Shown here: one piece after another, positions 36,473-47,469 of the stretch
How positions within the stretch are numbered: the first letter of the stretch is position 1
Layout: every line of letters begins with the position of its first letter
Assembly (NCBI GenBank): GCA_000004695.1
Contig: CM000150.2
Location: 3,776,001 to 3,840,000 of the forward strand
DNA: 64,000 nucleotides
Direction of reading: 5' to 3'
Origin: Dictyostelium discoideum
Lineage: Eukaryota
The notes under the pieces: model-generated
The model's database searches: none
Told to the model about the DNA's origin: nothing
The model's input: the letters and a program-made list of their open reading frames with translations, nothing else
Position numbers and translations under genes: made by a program

Positions 36473-39400
36473 TCAATTTGAATTTGAACTTGAAGCACCT
36501 TCATAAGAATGATCTTCATGTTGATCATAAACAGAATTTGATTGAAATCTAATTAAAATAAATAATCTATCATCTTCACGTAACATAGTCGATGGTGAAG
36601 GATTTGTTAGTACATAACGAGTGATTTCATCATTATGAGAATCAAGATCATCAATTAAATGAGGAGGTAAACCTGATACAACTGGATTGATTGGTGTATT
36701 CATATTAGTTTTTTGAGAAGTACCAGAGGCATCTATTGGAGTTGAATTGTAACTATTGTTTAGATCTTGATTTGGGGAGGAAGCACCATTTACAGTATTC
36801 TTATTAGCACCACCACCTTTATGATGAGTTCTAAATAAAGCTATACAAATTATATTTGATTCGACTAAACTTTCAAATAAGTAACCAAATCTATGATGAT
36901 AGAAATGTTCAGGTAATGGTACTTGAAATACTTTGGTAACACTTTTTTTGAATTGATTATCAGTGTTCATACCAACCAATACACTAATCATACTTAATAA
37001 ATGTGGATTAAAGAAACATTGACATAATAAACTATCGAAAACTGAACTAAGGAAAACATTACCAGCTGCGAATGATGGTGAATGATAAAATGGTTGATTT
37101 TGTTTCCAATTGAAATTACCAGGTAAGAATTTCATATTTAAAGGTTCAGAGATTTCATAGATTGGAAATATTTTAATATTTTTTCTAGCTACTTCTCTTA
37201 TACAAACCATTGATAATAATGTTTCACGATCATTGAATAATAATTCTTCAGAGTTTGCATCATGAGTGAGTACGACGATCTTTGAACATTTATAGACACC
37301 AGCTCTTTTCAAATCACTAAATTCATAACATTTACCTTCAACTACATAAATCTCTGGATAACTTTCAATATATTTCCATTGATCTTCTGTTAGTTTTGGT
37401 GTTAAAATGACGATTGGTTCATAACGTCTAATATGACCTTCTCTAAGTGGTGAAATGAAATTTTCAATACAATCAACTGATGAACCTGCAATGATAATAT
37501 GATTTCTAATATTATCCATTGATTCTACACTATCTACAATACAATCATCTAAAAAGTGAGAACCCCAAAATCTTTTTGGTAATCTACTTGAAAATAAATC
37601 ATTTGAAGGTGGTTGTGGTATATCGGTCATTAAACTAGTTGAATTACCAGTAGTTGTACTAAAATCCATACTTGGTGGTCTACCAATAGTTTGATGTAAA
37701 TGTATATCGGTACTATTTAATGGATTAAAGTTATTGGAAGCAGCGGCAATATTATTAGTAGTATTATCTTCAAAATCAATTGAAGAATTACGTTTATGAT
37801 GTTGATGATGATGTTGTTGTTGTTGTTGTTGTTGTTGTTGTCTATGTTGACCATTTGTTAAAAATGTAAAATTATCAACACCAACAGTACCATTTGTATC
37901 AGTTGTAAGACCACCACCAATACTTGTTGTTTTTTGAAAAGTATTTTTTGAAATTGTATCATCACTACTATCAGTATTACCATTTAAAATATCTCTTTTC
38001 TTTTCTAATAACATTCTTCTTAATGATTTTTTATTCGTATTTTTATTATGAGATTTTGGTATGAATTTTAATTTACATTGATAAGATTTATCAATTGGAT
38101 CATATTCCCAAACCAATTTACAATCTTTATCCAATATACCAATTTCAGTATTACGTAGATTTGTTTGTTTAATTGCTTCAATCTTTCTTTTGACCAATTC
38201 AGTACCACAAAATTTAATTCTTTTAGATTGAAGTTTATTCTTTGCCAATAATACACCATAGGTACCTTCTTGAATGATGAATGAATTCTTTGGATTAATT
38301 TTAATTCTACGTTTATCACCACTTTGAACTTCTATACCAAAAATGATCATACCAAAAGTTTCATAAACCAATTGAACCACTTGTGAGAATGTTAAACCAT
38401 AGAATGCACTTGAAAAAGGTTGAGTGAAAATTTCATAAGAATTACCACTTGCATATTCATCGGAATCATTATATTTCTCAAGATCTGATCTTAATAAATT
38501 CATAACCAATGTGATAAAACCTGGTGAAATACAAGATTGTGCTAAAAGATTCATTTTTAATTCTTGTACTGATACTACTTGAGTTGCACCTGCAGCAATC
38601 ATTTTTCTCTTTAATCTTGGTACCATTGCTTGAGCGAAAATTGGTATAGTTGCATTGAATGATCTAACAGACATCACTCTTAAAATGTTTTCATTATCAT
38701 CTTGTTGTGAATGATTTAATGATTTCTTAGAGAAAATGAAAACTGCTTTCGATCGATCCAATTTAACCCTTTGAACATCTTGTTGACTACCTATTGAACC
38801 TTTGAAAAAGAAATATCTTTTTTTAATTCTATTGGTTAAAGAATCCCAAAATGAAGGTTGGTCAACATTTGATAGAATAATCACTGGCATTTCACCAATT
38901 CTAGAATTAAAGAAGAATTCCCTTAGAAATGTGGTTAAAGAACTTTCGAAAATGTTACCAATGATAGTTACAAATTTCTTCTTTTTAGATGGTTTATATT
39001 CACCATTCCATGATTTAGTTGCTGAAAGTACTGCAATTAATTTACCAGTTTGAACAGGTAAATAACCCAATGCAACCATAATCATTAAAATCGCTACCAT
39101 TCTACCCAATGTTGATCTTGGTGTTATATCACCATAACCAACGGTTGACAATGATACAACTGCATAATAAATTGAATCATGAAATTTAATACCTTCAATT
39201 TCACATATCATTGATGCAAATAAAATAATTAATATAATAATCGATAATATCAATTGAATTATTTGTTTCAATACTGATGTTGCGCCATGAAGTTTAAATA
39301 ATCTTGGAGCTTTTAAAATTCTTAAAACTCTTAAAAATCCTAATGGTGTTACTGGAATTGATGGTATCATTGTAATTAAAATTGGTACAATTGTAATAAT

Positions 39401-40336
39401 ATCTAAAATTGTATTTTTTTTTTTAAAAAATTTAATTCTTTTTTTTTAAAAAAAAAAAAATAAAAATAAATTAATAAATAAATAATTTATAAATAATTAA
39501 TAAAATATATATATTTATTATTAATATTTTTTATTTTTTTTTTATTTTTTTTTTTATTTTACTTACTTATCTTTTGCAAAAATAAAAATTCTAACAAAAT
39601 CAAAACAAAAATAAGCAGAAATTGCAACAACAACATGATTAATTTGACGAACTCTAAAATTATTAGTAATTTCATCTTGAGTGATTGGATATTTTACCAT
39701 ATTTGGTAAATAAGATAAAGCAATGAATAAACCAATTGAAACTATTGATAGGAAAATATTGATATGTTCAAGTACGAAATCAACTCTTTGATAAGTTTCT
39801 TTATATGCTTTTAAATATAATCTCTTTTTTTTATCTTCTTCAAAATTTACTATATCATTATTTTCAAATGAATTCTCATCAATTTCTTCGATTGAACCAT
39901 CTGAATCTGAATCTGAATCTGAATTCTCCAAATGTGATGATACACCCAATACAGTATCCTTTTGATGATTTCCTGTTAATTGTTGTTCATAAACTTCATT
40001 TTGATCTCTAAATGATTCATTATAAAATGATGATTGCTTTAAATAACCTTCATCATCAAATCTTGATTTATTAAAATCAACTTTTGGTATTATTTTATCT
40101 GCATTCAAATTTGGACTACTCCTATTAATTGATTCATTAATATTTACAATTTTACTAACTCTTCTTTCTCTAATTCCATTATTATTATCATTTAAATTAT
40201 TATTATTACTATTATTATTATTATTTTTTAAAATACTATTATTATTATTATTATTATTTTTATCACCATCACCTATATTATTTCCATTATTGATAATAGG
40301 GGATGGTGATGGCTTTTTTCCTTCCTCTTCATCCAT
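36473..40336 (-). CDS. large-conductance Ca2+-activated (BK/Slo-like) potassium channel alpha subunit; two exons (approx. 39567..40336 and 36473..~39410), junction uncertain
   Basis: ORF 39563..40336(-) encodes S1-S2 (INIFLSIVSIGLFIALSYL; INHVVVAISAYFCFDFVRIFIFAKDK) and ends at gtaagt. ORF 36473..39370(-) plus upstream open frame encode S3 (ILDIITIVPILITM), S4 (LGFLRVLRILKAPRLFKL), the pore TVGYGD, S6, and an RCK/Slo-type cytoplasmic region (VTIIGNIFESSLTTFLREFF...MPVIILSN...). Confidence 0.65.
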
Positions 40337-41625
40337 TAAAGGTTGATAAAAATGATTTCCTAAAATTTTATTTCCCTTTTGAAAAAATCTAACTTGTCTC
40401 TATATTTTTTTTTTTTTTTTAAAAATAAACATAAAAATATTAATTATTTTTATCTTTAGATTATAAAAAAAAAAAAAAGGATCTTTATATTTTTTCTTTT
40501 TCTTTTTTTTTTTTTTTTTTTTCTCTTTATTTATTTAGTAATTTGATGTATTTGAGAAAAAAAAAAAAAAAAAAAAAAAAAAAGAAATTATTTTTGTAAA
40601 AAAAAAAATTTAAAAATAAATTATTTTGGTACCAAGGACCACTTTTTTTTATTTGGGGTCTGAAAATAAAAATATTTCGATTTCTTGTGAAAAAAAATAA
40701 TAAAAAAAATAAAAAAAAAAATGGAAAAAAATTTTTTTTTTTTAAATTCTTTTTTAATTTTTTTTATTTTTTTTATTTTTTTTATTTTTTTTATTTTTTT
40801 TATTTTTTTTTTTTAATTTAAGCCTGGTCATAAAAAGATTTATTATAATATGTTACAAAAAAAAAAACTAAATAAAAATGCAATTATTTTTTGATTTTAA
40901 ATTTTTTTTTTTTTTTTTTTACCATTTAAATAAATAATATAATAAAAATAAAATAAAAAACTTACACATTATAATAAAAATATTATTTATAATAATAAAA
41001 AAAAAAAAAAAAAAAAAAAAGTAAAAATTAATTTATATCTATAATTAAATAGTAAAATTTACTATTGTTTCAAATATATTTTATAAACAACGTGTTTAAT
41101 TTAGATAATTAAATTAGGTACCAAGTGTTTTTAGACAAAATAAAAATTAAATGGATAAAACAAAAAAAAAAAATAAAAAAATAAATAAAAAATTTTTAAA
41201 AATTAAAATTAAAAATAAAATAAAAATTATTATTTTTTTTTTTTAATTTTTCCTTTTATTTTAAATTTTTTTTTTTTTAAATCTCAGATCTGTGATACCA
41301 TATTCTTGAAACTAAAAAATATTTATATTTTTTATTTTTTTTTTATTTTTCATTTTTTTTTATAAAATTAAAAAAAAAATTAAAAAATAAAAATAAATAA
41401 TATTTATTTATTAGTTGGACTATTTTTATTTATTTATTTTTTTTTTTTTTTTGATCTATTTAATGGATTTTTACCACCCCTGAGCATATATAAAAAAAAA
41501 ATAAAAAAAAATATAAAAAAAATATAAATTACTTAATAATTTATATTATTATTCATATTATTTATACATAAATATATATATATTTTTTTTTTTTTATTAT
41601 TTTTTTTTTTTTTTTTAAATTAAAT

Positions 41626-42924
41626 TTATTTTTCTAATAATTTATCAAATTTTCTTTGGTCTAAAACTATTGACTGAATTTCTTCAAATAATTTATCTTC
41701 AGAAATTTTTCTTTGAGGTAATTTATTGAATAAATCTATACATTCATCATAAGTTGCTTGAATTAGATCAGAGATGAAGTAACGTAGAATGGATAGTGCA
41801 GTTCTATATATGAAAATTTCACCTTCAATGAAAACTAAATCCCAAATACGAGTTGCAACATCCAATGGCAATGCTTTTGAGAAGAGGGTTGTTATCCAAT
41901 CGACTAAATAATTCTTTGCACTTATACCAATCTCTTTGAAATGTTTATGTAGTGGTGGTGTCAATGCCTCAACCGTTGAATCCATTGCCGCTAAATATTT
42001 TGGTATACCAGATTGATCTTGACGAAAGAATGGTAAGAAACAAACACTATTGATATGATTTGATAATGATAGAAATGCATCACATTTCTCCATATTCAAT
42101 AGAAACATCGCCGCCAAGAACGTCATGCCCGGCACGTACCCAATGTCGGGCCTGTAGCAAATATAGGCCCCCAACACGTCGATCAAATCGCTATGTAGCG
42201 GACCGCCCTTTTGAAAGATCATCAACGATGGGAACGTGTCTTGAATATCCTGTAAAATCAACGCCATATTAGTCGTCTCCAAATCCAACACGTCATCCTC
42301 GCCATCGGTTGATGTATTCATCGGTGATCTACTATGATGTATTGAATTATTTGCCTGTCTTAAATCTATATTTATATTTGGTGATTTCGATGATGACGAT
42401 AGTGATGATTTTAAAGGTGGTGAAGTAGTTTTATTATATGCGTTATTCGCATGCCCTAAAAATATATTGAAAAGTTCATCGGTGACACGAAGATCATTGC
42501 CTATGCATAGTCTCCAAATTTTGCCGCGCACTGCTGGTGGCAGTCCCCTCCATGATAAATCTTTTATCTTTTTTATATCTCTTTTCTTGCTGTTCTTCTC
42601 CCACACTGGTATGATATCCTCTTCCCATACCTTTCTTGCATCTATCAATGATCTCTCTTTTTCTTTTCTAATTGCATCTAGTTTCTCTTTTTCTTTTGCT
42701 TCTCTCTCTAAAGTTTTCTTTGCTTTCCTCTGTATCTCTTCATATTCTCTCTGATGTTTTAATACTTCCTCTTGTGATTTTGGTGGTAATGTTTTTGGTC
42801 TATCCAATGATGAACTTGGACTTAAAATTAATTTCTCAACTTTACCTGTTGTCACTAATTCTTTATAATTTTCTGGTAAATCACATTGATTATTATTATT
42901 ATTACTACTATTACTCTCTGACAT
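41626..42924 (-). CDS. TBC (Rab-GAP) domain protein, TBC1D12/13/14-like, with both catalytic-finger residues substituted
   Basis: A single 432-aa ORF. It has a coiled-coil K/E-rich N-half. The TBC domain contains WRGLPPAVRGKIWRLCIGNDLRVTDELF, ILQDIQDTFPSL (the canonical IxxDxxRTFP Arg is D here), and GYVPGMTFLAAMFLL (the canonical YxQGM Gln is P here). Confidence 0.75.
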   Translation of the reverse strand: MSESNSSNNNNNQCDLPENYKELVTTGKVEKLILSPSSSLDRPKTLPPKSQEEVLKHQREYEEIQRKAKKTLEREAKEKEKLDAIRKEKERSLIDARKVWEEDIIPVWEKNSKKRDIKKIKDLSWRGLPPAVRGKIWRLCIGNDLRVTDELFNIFLGHANNAYNKTTSPPLKSSLSSSSKSPNINIDLRQANNSIHHSRSPMNTSTDGEDDVLDLETTNMALILQDIQDTFPSLMIFQKGGPLHSDLIDVLGAYICYRPDIGYVPGMTFLAAMFLLNMEKCDAFLSLSNHINSVCFLPFFRQDQSGIPKYLAAMDSTVEALTPPLHKHFKEIGISAKNYLVDWITTLFSKALPLDVATRIWDLVFIEGEIFIYRTALSILRYFISDLIQATYDECIDLFNKLPQRKISEDKLFEEIQSIVLDQRKFDKLLEK

Positions 42925-43030
42925 TATATGTCAATGAAAAAATAAAAAAAATATAAATATATATATATTAAATAAATAATAAATAATAAATAATAAATAA
43001 AAACAAATAAATAAATTAGACTCTTTCTTT

Positions 43031-43063
<33 letters not shown>

Positions 43064-43068
43064 TATTA

Positions 43069-43108
<40 letters not shown>

Positions 43109-43514
43109 TTTGAAAAAATTAAAAAATTAAAAAATAAAAAAAAAAATAAAAAAAATAAAAAATTCACTCAGTGTGGGCAGTACTGTTGTCAAAACAAATC
43201 ATTTTTTTTCTGCATGATGGTATTCAAATATATAACCCAGGGTCATATTTATTTTTTGAAAATGTTTTTATTTTTTTTTTATTTTTATTTTTTAAAATTA
43301 GTGTAGAATAAAAATAATAATTTTTATAAATTCTCCACTACTTTTTGATATGGCTTGTAAATATTGCTTTGTTTTGATGGTTTTGAAATCCAAATATTAT
43401 TATGAATAAAGTTTGTAGTACTAGAAAAAAAAAAAATAAAAAAAAAAAAAAATTAAAAAAATAAAAATAAACATAAAATAAAAATAATATCGATCTATTT
43501 TAAAAACCCTGATT

Positions 43515-45425: not shown

Positions 45426-47389
45426 CTTAAAAATTTCTAATTTTTTTTTATTGTTATTATTTTTTATTTTAGATTGGAAGTTAGAATTGTTGAACAACCA
45501 CCAGAAAAAGCAATTTATAAAAGAAATGTTAAACCAGCACCATCAGTTGTTTTTGATGGTGATTCAAAATTATTAAATGGAAATTATTATGTACATGTAG
45601 CATTATTAAGGTAAATTTATAAAATATTATTGAAAAAAAAAAAAAAAAAAAAAAAAAAATTTAATATTAATATTTTTTTATTATTTTTTGTTTTTTTATT
45701 AAAGATGTACTGATTTTATTGAAGAACCAACATTTTTAAATGGTGCAAGTAAACCATTTAAAATTGGATGTGGTAAAGTTGTTACATTTAAGAAATTAAA
45801 GATTTTAGTTACAAGTCATCAACAAGGTGAAACATTATTTTGTTTTAGATTTGATCTACGTTGCTATGCATCAGATCCAGAAACCAATCCAACTGATTTC
45901 ACAGTGGTTTCATCAGTACAAACCAATCCAATTAGTGTTTTATCACATTCAACTCAATTAAAGAGTACTGCCATAGCTGATTTACCAAAGGTTACAGAGA
46001 TTTTCCCATTGAATGGTCCAGCCACTGGTGGAACAAGAATTGCATTGTTGGGTTCAAATTTTGCTGATACACCTGCCACTCGTATCAAGTTTGGTAATAC
46101 AGAGGTTGTACCAGAGTTTTATAGTAATGGTACCTTGTTATGCTATGCACCAGAACATGCACCAGGACCCGTTGAAGTGAAAGTAAGTAATAGTGCAAAC
46201 TCTTGGAGTGTCACAATGTGCACCTTCACCTACGACAATGTAGCCACCATTGATAATGGTGATTCAGCTACCCAACAAACCAATGATTTACTATTACCAA
46301 AGAGTTTGTTTGGTTTGGATTTCTCAAAGACGTTCGATTCATCATTTATCATTAAAGGATTGGATAGTGCATCCAATAATTTACCATCAAATAGTGGTGC
46401 TCATCGTAGTTTTAGTACACAACATCAACAACAATCAAGATCTGTAAATCAATTGAATCACAATGGTTATGCTCCAATTCATTATGCTTGTACCTATGGC
46501 AATCAAGTACTCTTGGAGAAAATATTATCTTTACCATTGTCATCAATCAATTGTATCGATAAACATGGTAACACTGGTCTTCACTATGCTGTAATCTTTG
46601 GTCATTTCCAATTGGTTCAATGGATGCTTCGTGTTGGTGGTGCTTCACCAAATATTCAAAATTTCATTGGTCAAACTCCACTTCATTTAATCTCTACTAT
46701 TGCAAACAACCACCACAACAACGAAAAATGTACATTATTTATTGCAAGAGAATTGGTTAAATTTGGTGCCAATGTAAACATTGGTGACATTGATAGTGTT
46801 ACACCACTTCATTATTCTGCTGCTTTTGGAAAGTCTCAAATCCTTTCTTTCCTTCTCAATGAATGTGCTGTTGATTTATATTGTAGAGATGATTCTAATG
46901 AAACTGCCCTTCATTATGCCACTAGAGAACAACATTTAAATTGTATAGAAATTTTATTATCACATGCTTTCAATAAGGAGAGTGATTCAACAACAACAAC
47001 ATCAACAACAAATGAATATGATAATATTTTACATTATTTATCATCAAGTAAACGTTATAATTTTAATCACAATGATCATGAAGATAACGTTCCTCAAGAT
47101 GATGAAGACTTTGATGAAGATGATGAAAATAGTAATGAACCATTTCATTTATTAAAAAATGAAGATGGTGAAACATCATTCCATCTCTCTTTACTAAATA
47201 ATTTAAATAACTCTATAAATAACTCTAATAATAACAAAATCATTGATACCTTTTTAAAATATAATTCAAAATTCCAAGATAAAATTAATAATTCAAAAAA
47301 TTTAAACAAAACAGAACAATCTTTAAATAATAATCATAATAATAATAATAGCTCAATTCTAAAAATAATATCAACTTTTAATCATATTC

Positions 47390-47437
<48 letters not shown>

Positions 47438-47469
47438 GTAATAATAATTTACTTCAAGTAAATATATGA
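44454..47469 (+). CDS. IPT/TIG-domain and ankyrin-repeat protein (putative transcription factor with Rel-homology-like beta-sandwich N-terminal to the IPT domain); exons 44454..45379, 45472..45609, 45705..47469
   Basis: Exon 1 (ORF 44454..45383) ends AAT AA|gtaagt in phase 2. The acceptor ttttatttag|A TTG GAA GTT AGA ATT GTT GAA CAA CCA CCA gives ...K LEVRIVEQPPEKAIYKRNVKP...VALL + AG|gtaaat, and ttattaaag|A gives R CTDFIEEPTFLNG.... This is in frame with ORF 45904..47469, which has an IPT/TIG domain (ITEIFPLNGPATGGTRIALLGSNF...GPVEVKV), at least four ankyrin repeats (TGLHYAVIFGHFQLVQWML.., TPLHLIS.., TPLHYSAAFGKSQILSFLL.., TALHYATREQHLNCIEILL) and an N-rich tail. Confidence 0.7.

Follow-up and report, generated by a model that had tools for sequence, protein, structure and literature searches.

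A TBC1D12/TBC1D14-like domain with aspartate and proline at the two catalytic finger positions in Dictyostelium Drainin

Several classes of TBC-domain protein that lack their catalytic fingers serve as adaptors or scaffolds. TBC folds without one or both catalytic residues include TBC1D7, TBC1D19, TBC1D23, TBC1D24 and WDR67 (PMC3655817). Human TBC1D14 is a TBC protein described as an effector: among GTP-locked Rabs it bound Rab11a/b only, it was without GAP activity on 47 Rabs, and it is called a Rab11 effector even though both of its fingers are retained (PMC3365497).

In Dictyostelium, TBC proteins of contractile-vacuole discharge are covered by PMC3315810 (Essid et al. 2012), whose summary of Drainin draws on earlier work that includes Du et al. 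2008 and Becker et al. 1999. There, recruitment of Drainin to the contractile-vacuole bladder depends on Rab11a-GTP, and the protein is termed 'a Rab11a effector'; with reference to Du et al. 2008, the paper also records no measurable GAP activity for it. Bladders of the drainin null are enlarged more than 10-fold and are still tethered to the plasma membrane; the exocyst co-immunoprecipitates with Drainin, which confines Rab8a and the exocyst to the contact zone (PMC3315810). [quoted passage not shown] Like Drainin, Disgorgin is described in that literature as a TBC-domain regulator of contractile-vacuole discharge; unlike Drainin, it is reported to be catalytically active, serving as the pathway's GAP for Rab8A (PMC3315810).

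Our starting point was an open reading frame of 432 amino acids on the minus strand (41626..42924) of a 64,000-nucleotide stretch of Dictyostelium discoideum DNA (hereafter the window), which is extremely AT-rich, as is typical of Dictyostelium. An exact-sequence look-up matched the product to KAM9940936.1 from a D. discoideum isolate (assembly GCA_054883475.1), which shares a 90% cluster with O96904, XP_646386 and DDB_G0269130, that is, with Drainin. BLASTP of the 432-residue product against Drainin of strain AX4 gave 426/426 identities, with the difference confined to the first residues. This mismatch is a matter of annotation: KAM9940936.1 begins at an internal ATG (42924) and so runs to 432 residues, versus 438 in the AX4-style model, and the missing MICFDNSTAHT is encoded 260 nt upstream. 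The complete gene (phgA, DDB_G0269130) occupies 41626-43202 on the minus strand, where it matches the AX4 protein, and comprises a 35-nt exon 1 (43168..43202, minus strand; MICFDNSTAHT plus the first two bases of an Asp codon, assigned from the upstream translation and the identity of the spliced product), a 260-nt intron (42908..43167, minus strand; GTGAAT...TAATAG, the sole GT..AG choice that gives the exact AX4 protein) and exon 2, including the stop codon (41626..42907, minus strand). Spliced in this way, the product is identical to AX4 Drainin (O96904, DDB_G0269130) at all 438 of 438 residues; the gene product is Drainin, with no protein-level difference from AX4. Drainin numbering equals that of the reading frame plus six, so that Asp229 becomes Asp235 and Pro265 becomes Pro271, and the numbering of RTALSILRYFIS as 380-391 in PMC7079120 is consistent with this offset.

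Near the start of the reading frame lies a poly-Asn tract (42880-42924, minus strand) whose length differs among isolates and species of the D. discoideum group; protein lengths in the group range from 429 to 451 amino acids, and the remainder beyond the tract is almost invariant.

Downstream of drainin lies a BK/Slo-like potassium-channel gene, present as two minus-strand reading frames about 190 nt apart (36473-39370 and 39563-40336) whose gap is probably an intron. The upstream neighbour, on the plus strand (45904-47469), encodes ankyrin-like repeats and sits at the position taken by a TIG-domain gene in D. purpureum and D. firmibasis; the arrangement of genes flanking drainin, with the channel gene downstream and the TIG gene upstream, is therefore conserved and matches that of D. 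purpureum. D. firmibasis likewise has the TIG gene upstream, and its large downstream gene (1238 amino acids, unannotated) is without a recorded domain hit.

Residues 131-387 of the reading frame (41764..42534, minus strand) form a RabGAP-TBC domain (Pfam PF00566, E 1.2e-44); the match scored 153 bits (cutoff 25.2) and covered the profile from position 2 to position 215 of 216. An AlphaFold model based on a MAFFT alignment had a mean pLDDT of 78.1; values exceeded 85 over most of the TBC domain and were low only in an insertion rich in Ser and Asn and in the N-terminal tail. When the model was searched with Foldseek, all of the top 33 matches were TBC domains, the best being the RabGAP domain of TBC1D14 (2qq8; TM 0.90, rmsd 2.5 A). 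TBC motif A is intact (VRGKIWRL, of the form RxxxW; 42508..42531, minus strand), its R133 and W137 being invariant in the alignment. Secondary structure of the model places a long N-terminal helix at residues 51-107 (42604..42774, minus strand), the start of which carries RPxxLPPKSxxExxKHxxxYEE...AKK, a pattern common to the metazoan TBC1D12/14 proteins in the alignment consensus. The Ser/Asn-rich insertion, which separates motif A from motif B (residues 171-209; 42298..42414, minus strand), is disordered, with pLDDT below 50; it varies in length and sequence among dictyostelids and is missing from metazoan relatives.

Both catalytic motifs are altered within this otherwise conserved fold. Motif B reads ILQDIQDTFP (42229..42258, minus strand) in place of IxxDxxRTFP, and motif C reads GYVPGM (42124..42141, minus strand) in place of GYxQGM, as placed by HMMER and MAFFT alignments. 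The arginine-finger position is taken by Asp229 of the reading frame (Asp235 of Drainin; GAC at 42238..42240, minus strand) and the glutamine-finger position by Pro265 (Pro271 of Drainin; CCG at 42130..42132, minus strand). HMMER comparison with four solved TBC domains, namely TBC1D14 (2qq8, E 5.7e-68), RABGAP1L (3hzj), RABGAP1 (4nc6) and TBC1D4 (3qyb), set the aspartate opposite the Arg of IxxDxxRTFP and the proline opposite the Gln of GYxQG, and a MAFFT alignment of 19 dictyostelid, metazoan and Thecamonas sequences placed both residues in the identical columns. By dual-finger criteria, neither an Arg finger (IxxDxxR) nor a Gln finger (YxQ) was found in Drainin. The original prediction had named just these two replacements in 42130-42240, an interval that codon mapping shows to be bounded by exactly the two finger codons, and had proposed alignment with TBC1D14 as the check; the four solved domains and the MAFFT alignment bear it out. 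One of its quoted motifs needs correction, since 'LIDWITTLFSK' reads LVDWITTLFSK in the sequence.

Human TBC1D14 is the closest solved structure to Drainin (2qq8; the next TBC class follows at E 1.7e-25) and is about 39-40% identical to it. Both TBC1D12 and TBC1D14 share the RPxxLPxK...KH..YEE N-terminal motif with Drainin, and every named non-amoebozoan match of Drainin is a TBC1D12 or a TBC1D14. The original prediction had spoken of TBC1D12/13/14-type proteins; TBC1D12 and TBC1D14 were among the relatives retrieved, none of which bears the name TBC1D13. Unlike Drainin, TBC1D14 keeps the arginine and glutamine (IKLDISRTFP, GYVQGM) and has a much longer N-terminal region. The two also differ in where they act: the recycling-endosome and autophagy roles offered as examples in the original prediction belong to human TBC1D14, which acts on recycling endosomes and in autophagosome formation, whereas the documented role of Drainin is in discharge of the contractile vacuole.

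Dictyostelids also have an F-box-TBC paralogue (for example P0062 in D. discoideum and P0046 in D. purpureum), whose TBC1D12/14-like domain is 37-40% identical to Drainin. Unlike Drainin, this paralogue has an arginine and a glutamine finger (LDLPRTFP, GYVQGM) as well as an F-box, and it groups in a clade apart from Drainin. The other finger-less TBC classes are only distant structural matches of Drainin (6jl7, 5hjq and 5ejc; E 1e-4 to 1e-3); in them the loss is class-wide and ancient, whereas in Drainin it is limited to an amoebozoan sub-branch of a class that otherwise bears arginine and glutamine.

Fifteen dictyostelid sequences carry ILQDIQDTFP and GYVPGM, among them sequences from independently assembled genomes of seven closely related isolates or species, so that neither chance nor a sequencing error accounts for the motifs. 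Both read the same, letter for letter, in four D. discoideum or 'cf. discoideum' isolates, D. dimigraforme, D. citrinum, D. firmibasis and D. purpureum, and likewise in Polysphondylium violaceum (cluster), Tieghemostelium lacteum, Acytostelium subglobosum and Cavenderia fasciculata, so that the Asp/Pro pair is invariant in every dictyostelid ortholog that covers the motifs. The species sampled span all major dictyostelid groups. This identity across dictyostelids argues for strong purifying selection on the altered motifs rather than decay, and the invariance of the pair argues that the aspartate and proline are themselves constrained in Dictyostelia. The Heterostelium album PN500 ortholog (P0008, 337 amino acids) is without the segment that holds both motifs and resumes at '...RMTFLGAMFLLNM'; this gap is most likely an error of the gene model and not a genuine deletion.

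We searched exhaustively for relatives with phmmer and mapped their residues at the finger columns. Arginine and glutamine are retained together by 228 of the 261 relatives, and the Asp/Pro pair is exclusive to dictyostelid Drainins. The nearest non-dictyostelid relatives are also finger-less, with Ala/Pro in Ceratiomyxa fruticulosa (P0129), Glu/Pro in P0128, Lys/Pro in P0130 and Lys/Gln in P0009, the last of which derives from a 1.6-kb Logan contig (locus L011). In a neighbour-joining tree these four group with the dictyostelid Drainins (bootstrap 74), and the F-box-TBC paralogue, with its arginine and glutamine, forms a clade of its own (bootstrap 100); the relation of the Drainin-like and F-box-TBC clades to the metazoan TBC1D12/14 group has bootstraps of only 15-44. 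Because the finger-less relatives group with the Drainins and the paralogue stands apart, loss of the arginine appears to predate Dictyostelia, and the tree suggests that the finger-less Drainin clade is older than Dictyostelia. The residue in the arginine column varies deep in the Drainin-like clade (Asp, Glu, Ala, Lys) and is fixed as Asp within Dictyostelia; proline at the glutamine position is nearly universal in the clade and recurs in lamprey.

Two groups of vertebrate sequences among the relatives have also lost fingers. TBC1D12-like proteins of percid fish (P0053, P0064, P0066, P0070, P0100 and P0177) read ITRDISGVLP, with the arginine replaced by glycine and the glutamine kept, and lamprey TBC1D14-like proteins (the P0234 cluster) read MTLDISSTFP and GYAPMT, with serine for arginine and proline for glutamine. 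These are independent events inside the vertebrate TBC1D12/14 paralogues, and they fit the report that some TBC classes show evolutionary flexibility in whether they carry arginine and glutamine (PMC3655817).

Both finger codons lie in a synonymous GC-rich island of codons 200-276 (42097..42327, minus strand), where GC3 is 0.66 over 77 codons versus 0.21 in the rest of the gene. Across the 21 reading frames of at least 200 amino acids in the window it stands out most by GC3, the runner-up among 77-codon windows reaching 0.42. GC3 falls in a gradient from 0.66 in the window to 0.58 and 0.42 in two 'cf. discoideum' isolates and to 0.30-0.35, near background, in D. dimigraforme, D. citrinum, D. 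firmibasis and D. purpureum, in all four of which the finger codons are GAT and CCA. The amino acids of the island are identical across six genomes of the D. discoideum group, and D. citrinum differs at one residue pair. When substitutions were polarised with four outgroups, the 77 island codons had undergone 23 synonymous AT-to-GC changes versus 2 GC-to-AT changes in the D. discoideum lineage, with no nonsynonymous change; the other 348 codons showed 27 versus 12. This pattern suggests a recent, local GC-biased process, which may be biased gene conversion or selection at synonymous sites. G/C-ending codons are rare in D. discoideum codon usage, and the island is thus a rare-codon cluster.

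Two other origins of the island were considered and rejected. For a structured or known RNA, Rfam returned nothing at E<=1 in 41400-43200 and nothing at gathering threshold across the whole window, folding of the island showed no excess structure (z-score 0.18), and a tRNA search found none. Gene conversion from the F-box-TBC paralogue would be expected to bring in arginine and glutamine together with further amino-acid changes, and these are absent. The original prediction had noted that both substitutions fall in the island; the placement is true, but the link is coincidental, since the substitutions are of ancient origin and the island is a recent feature made up of synonymous changes.

Taken with the published work, these observations make it very probable that Drainin is a protein of the TBC1D12/TBC1D14 branch that has kept the fold, lost both fingers and serves as a non-catalytic Rab11A-GTP effector in vacuole discharge. 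Its identity, fold, substitutions and conservation were computed here; the absence of GAP activity, the dependence on Rab11a-GTP and the vacuole phenotype come from the literature, chiefly as PMC3315810 summarises it. Since Asp replaces Arg and Pro replaces Gln, the two catalytic side chains cannot be supplied, and Drainin would have none to insert into the nucleotide pocket of the Rab. Rab11A-GTP would bring Drainin to the filled contractile-vacuole bladder, where the finger-less TBC domain would sit on Rab11A-GTP without triggering hydrolysis and so form a stable effector complex; we infer that finger loss makes this complex non-hydrolysing and hence long-lived. Drainin at the bladder would then be needed for orderly Rab8a/exocyst tethering, Disgorgin action and fusion-pore formation, leading to discharge. 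The predicted Rab binding without GTP hydrolysis agrees with the lack of GAP activity as relayed in PMC3315810, and an effector or scaffold with Rab11 as a candidate partner is what Drainin has been published to be.

The substitutions may nevertheless be a consequence and not a cause of inactivity. The direction is uncertain because human TBC1D14 is inactive with both fingers present (PMC3365497), and the branch may have been non-catalytic beforehand. It is possible, though on the whole unlikely, that finger loss was a neutral after-effect in a TBC1D12/14/Drainin branch that was already a non-catalytic Rab11 effector by geometry, with constraint on the fingers relaxed. Such a history would accommodate the lack of detectable GAP activity in TBC1D14, whose finger spacing reportedly deviates from that of Gyp1 (PMC3365497), as well as the variability of the arginine position (Asp, Glu, Ala, Lys) in the wider finger-less amoebozoan group and the independent losses in percid-fish TBC1D12-like (Arg to Gly) and lamprey TBC1D14-like (Arg to Ser, Gln to Pro) proteins. 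It sits less well with the retention of both residues in 228 of 261 relatives, which implies selection in most lineages, or with the replacing residues and their neighbours being invariant in Dictyostelia, contrary to drift; nor does it predict the repeated appearance of proline at the glutamine position, in Dictyostelia, Ceratiomyxa, P0128, P0130 and lamprey.

That same constraint could be read as a selected gain, in which Drainin covers the GAP-binding face of Rab11A-GTP and acts as an 'anti-GAP' by blocking hydrolysis or access by genuine GAPs. An acidic side chain at the entry of the arginine finger (Asp235) and a rigid proline at the glutamine position (Pro271) would together shield Rab11A-GTP and, if this were true, the Rab11A-GTP signal would be prolonged on the full bladder until discharge. 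Strict conservation of the dictyostelid motifs and the recurrence of proline at the glutamine position in independent lineages are compatible with this idea, which we regard as doubtful.

Less plausible still is that Drainin remains a GAP through other residues, through a finger supplied by a partner or towards another Rab. We found no support for it; in principle the panel of Rabs assayed was limited, and the TBC fold is preserved together with motif A. However, PMC3315810 reports that Drainin has no measurable GAP activity, both dual-finger residues are absent, and an aspartate is chemically the opposite of what transition-state stabilisation needs under the established TBC mechanism (Pan et al. 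2006); the genetics, moreover, give Drainin an activating role upstream of Disgorgin, which is the genuine GAP (PMC3315810). An artefact, be it an error in sequencing or assembly or a pseudogene in decay, might be imagined from the location of both finger codons in a compositionally odd stretch, but has next to no chance of being correct: the substitutions occur without the island (as GAT and CCA in D. firmibasis, D. purpureum and T. lacteum), the amino-acid sequence matches across seven independent assemblies, the reading frame is intact, the island holds no nonsynonymous change, and the null mutant has a phenotype (PMC3315810).

Drainin is well characterised, and the finding carries little weight as a discovery: its nature as a non-catalytic Rab11A effector is already known, so that the deduction from sequence, made without recognising a protein that had already been characterised, is correct and not new. 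Drainin was cloned in 1999, and its absent GAP activity and Rab11A-effector role were published in 2008 and extended in 2012; Du et al. 2008 reportedly also remarked on the missing arginine. Our literature search returned no usable explicit statement that Drainin lacks the catalytic arginine and glutamine, the search by name being confounded by 'draining'. Two finger motifs read from raw sequence nonetheless predicted the biochemistry of Drainin correctly. What is added here is an evolutionary frame, in which the finger-less state is fixed in the dictyostelid orthologs that cover the motifs, extends at the arginine position to Ceratiomyxa, P0128, P0130 and P0009, and stands beside a paralogue with both fingers. 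The losses in lamprey, percid fish and Drainin support the view that the TBC1D12/14 branch is prone to turning into a pure Rab11 effector.
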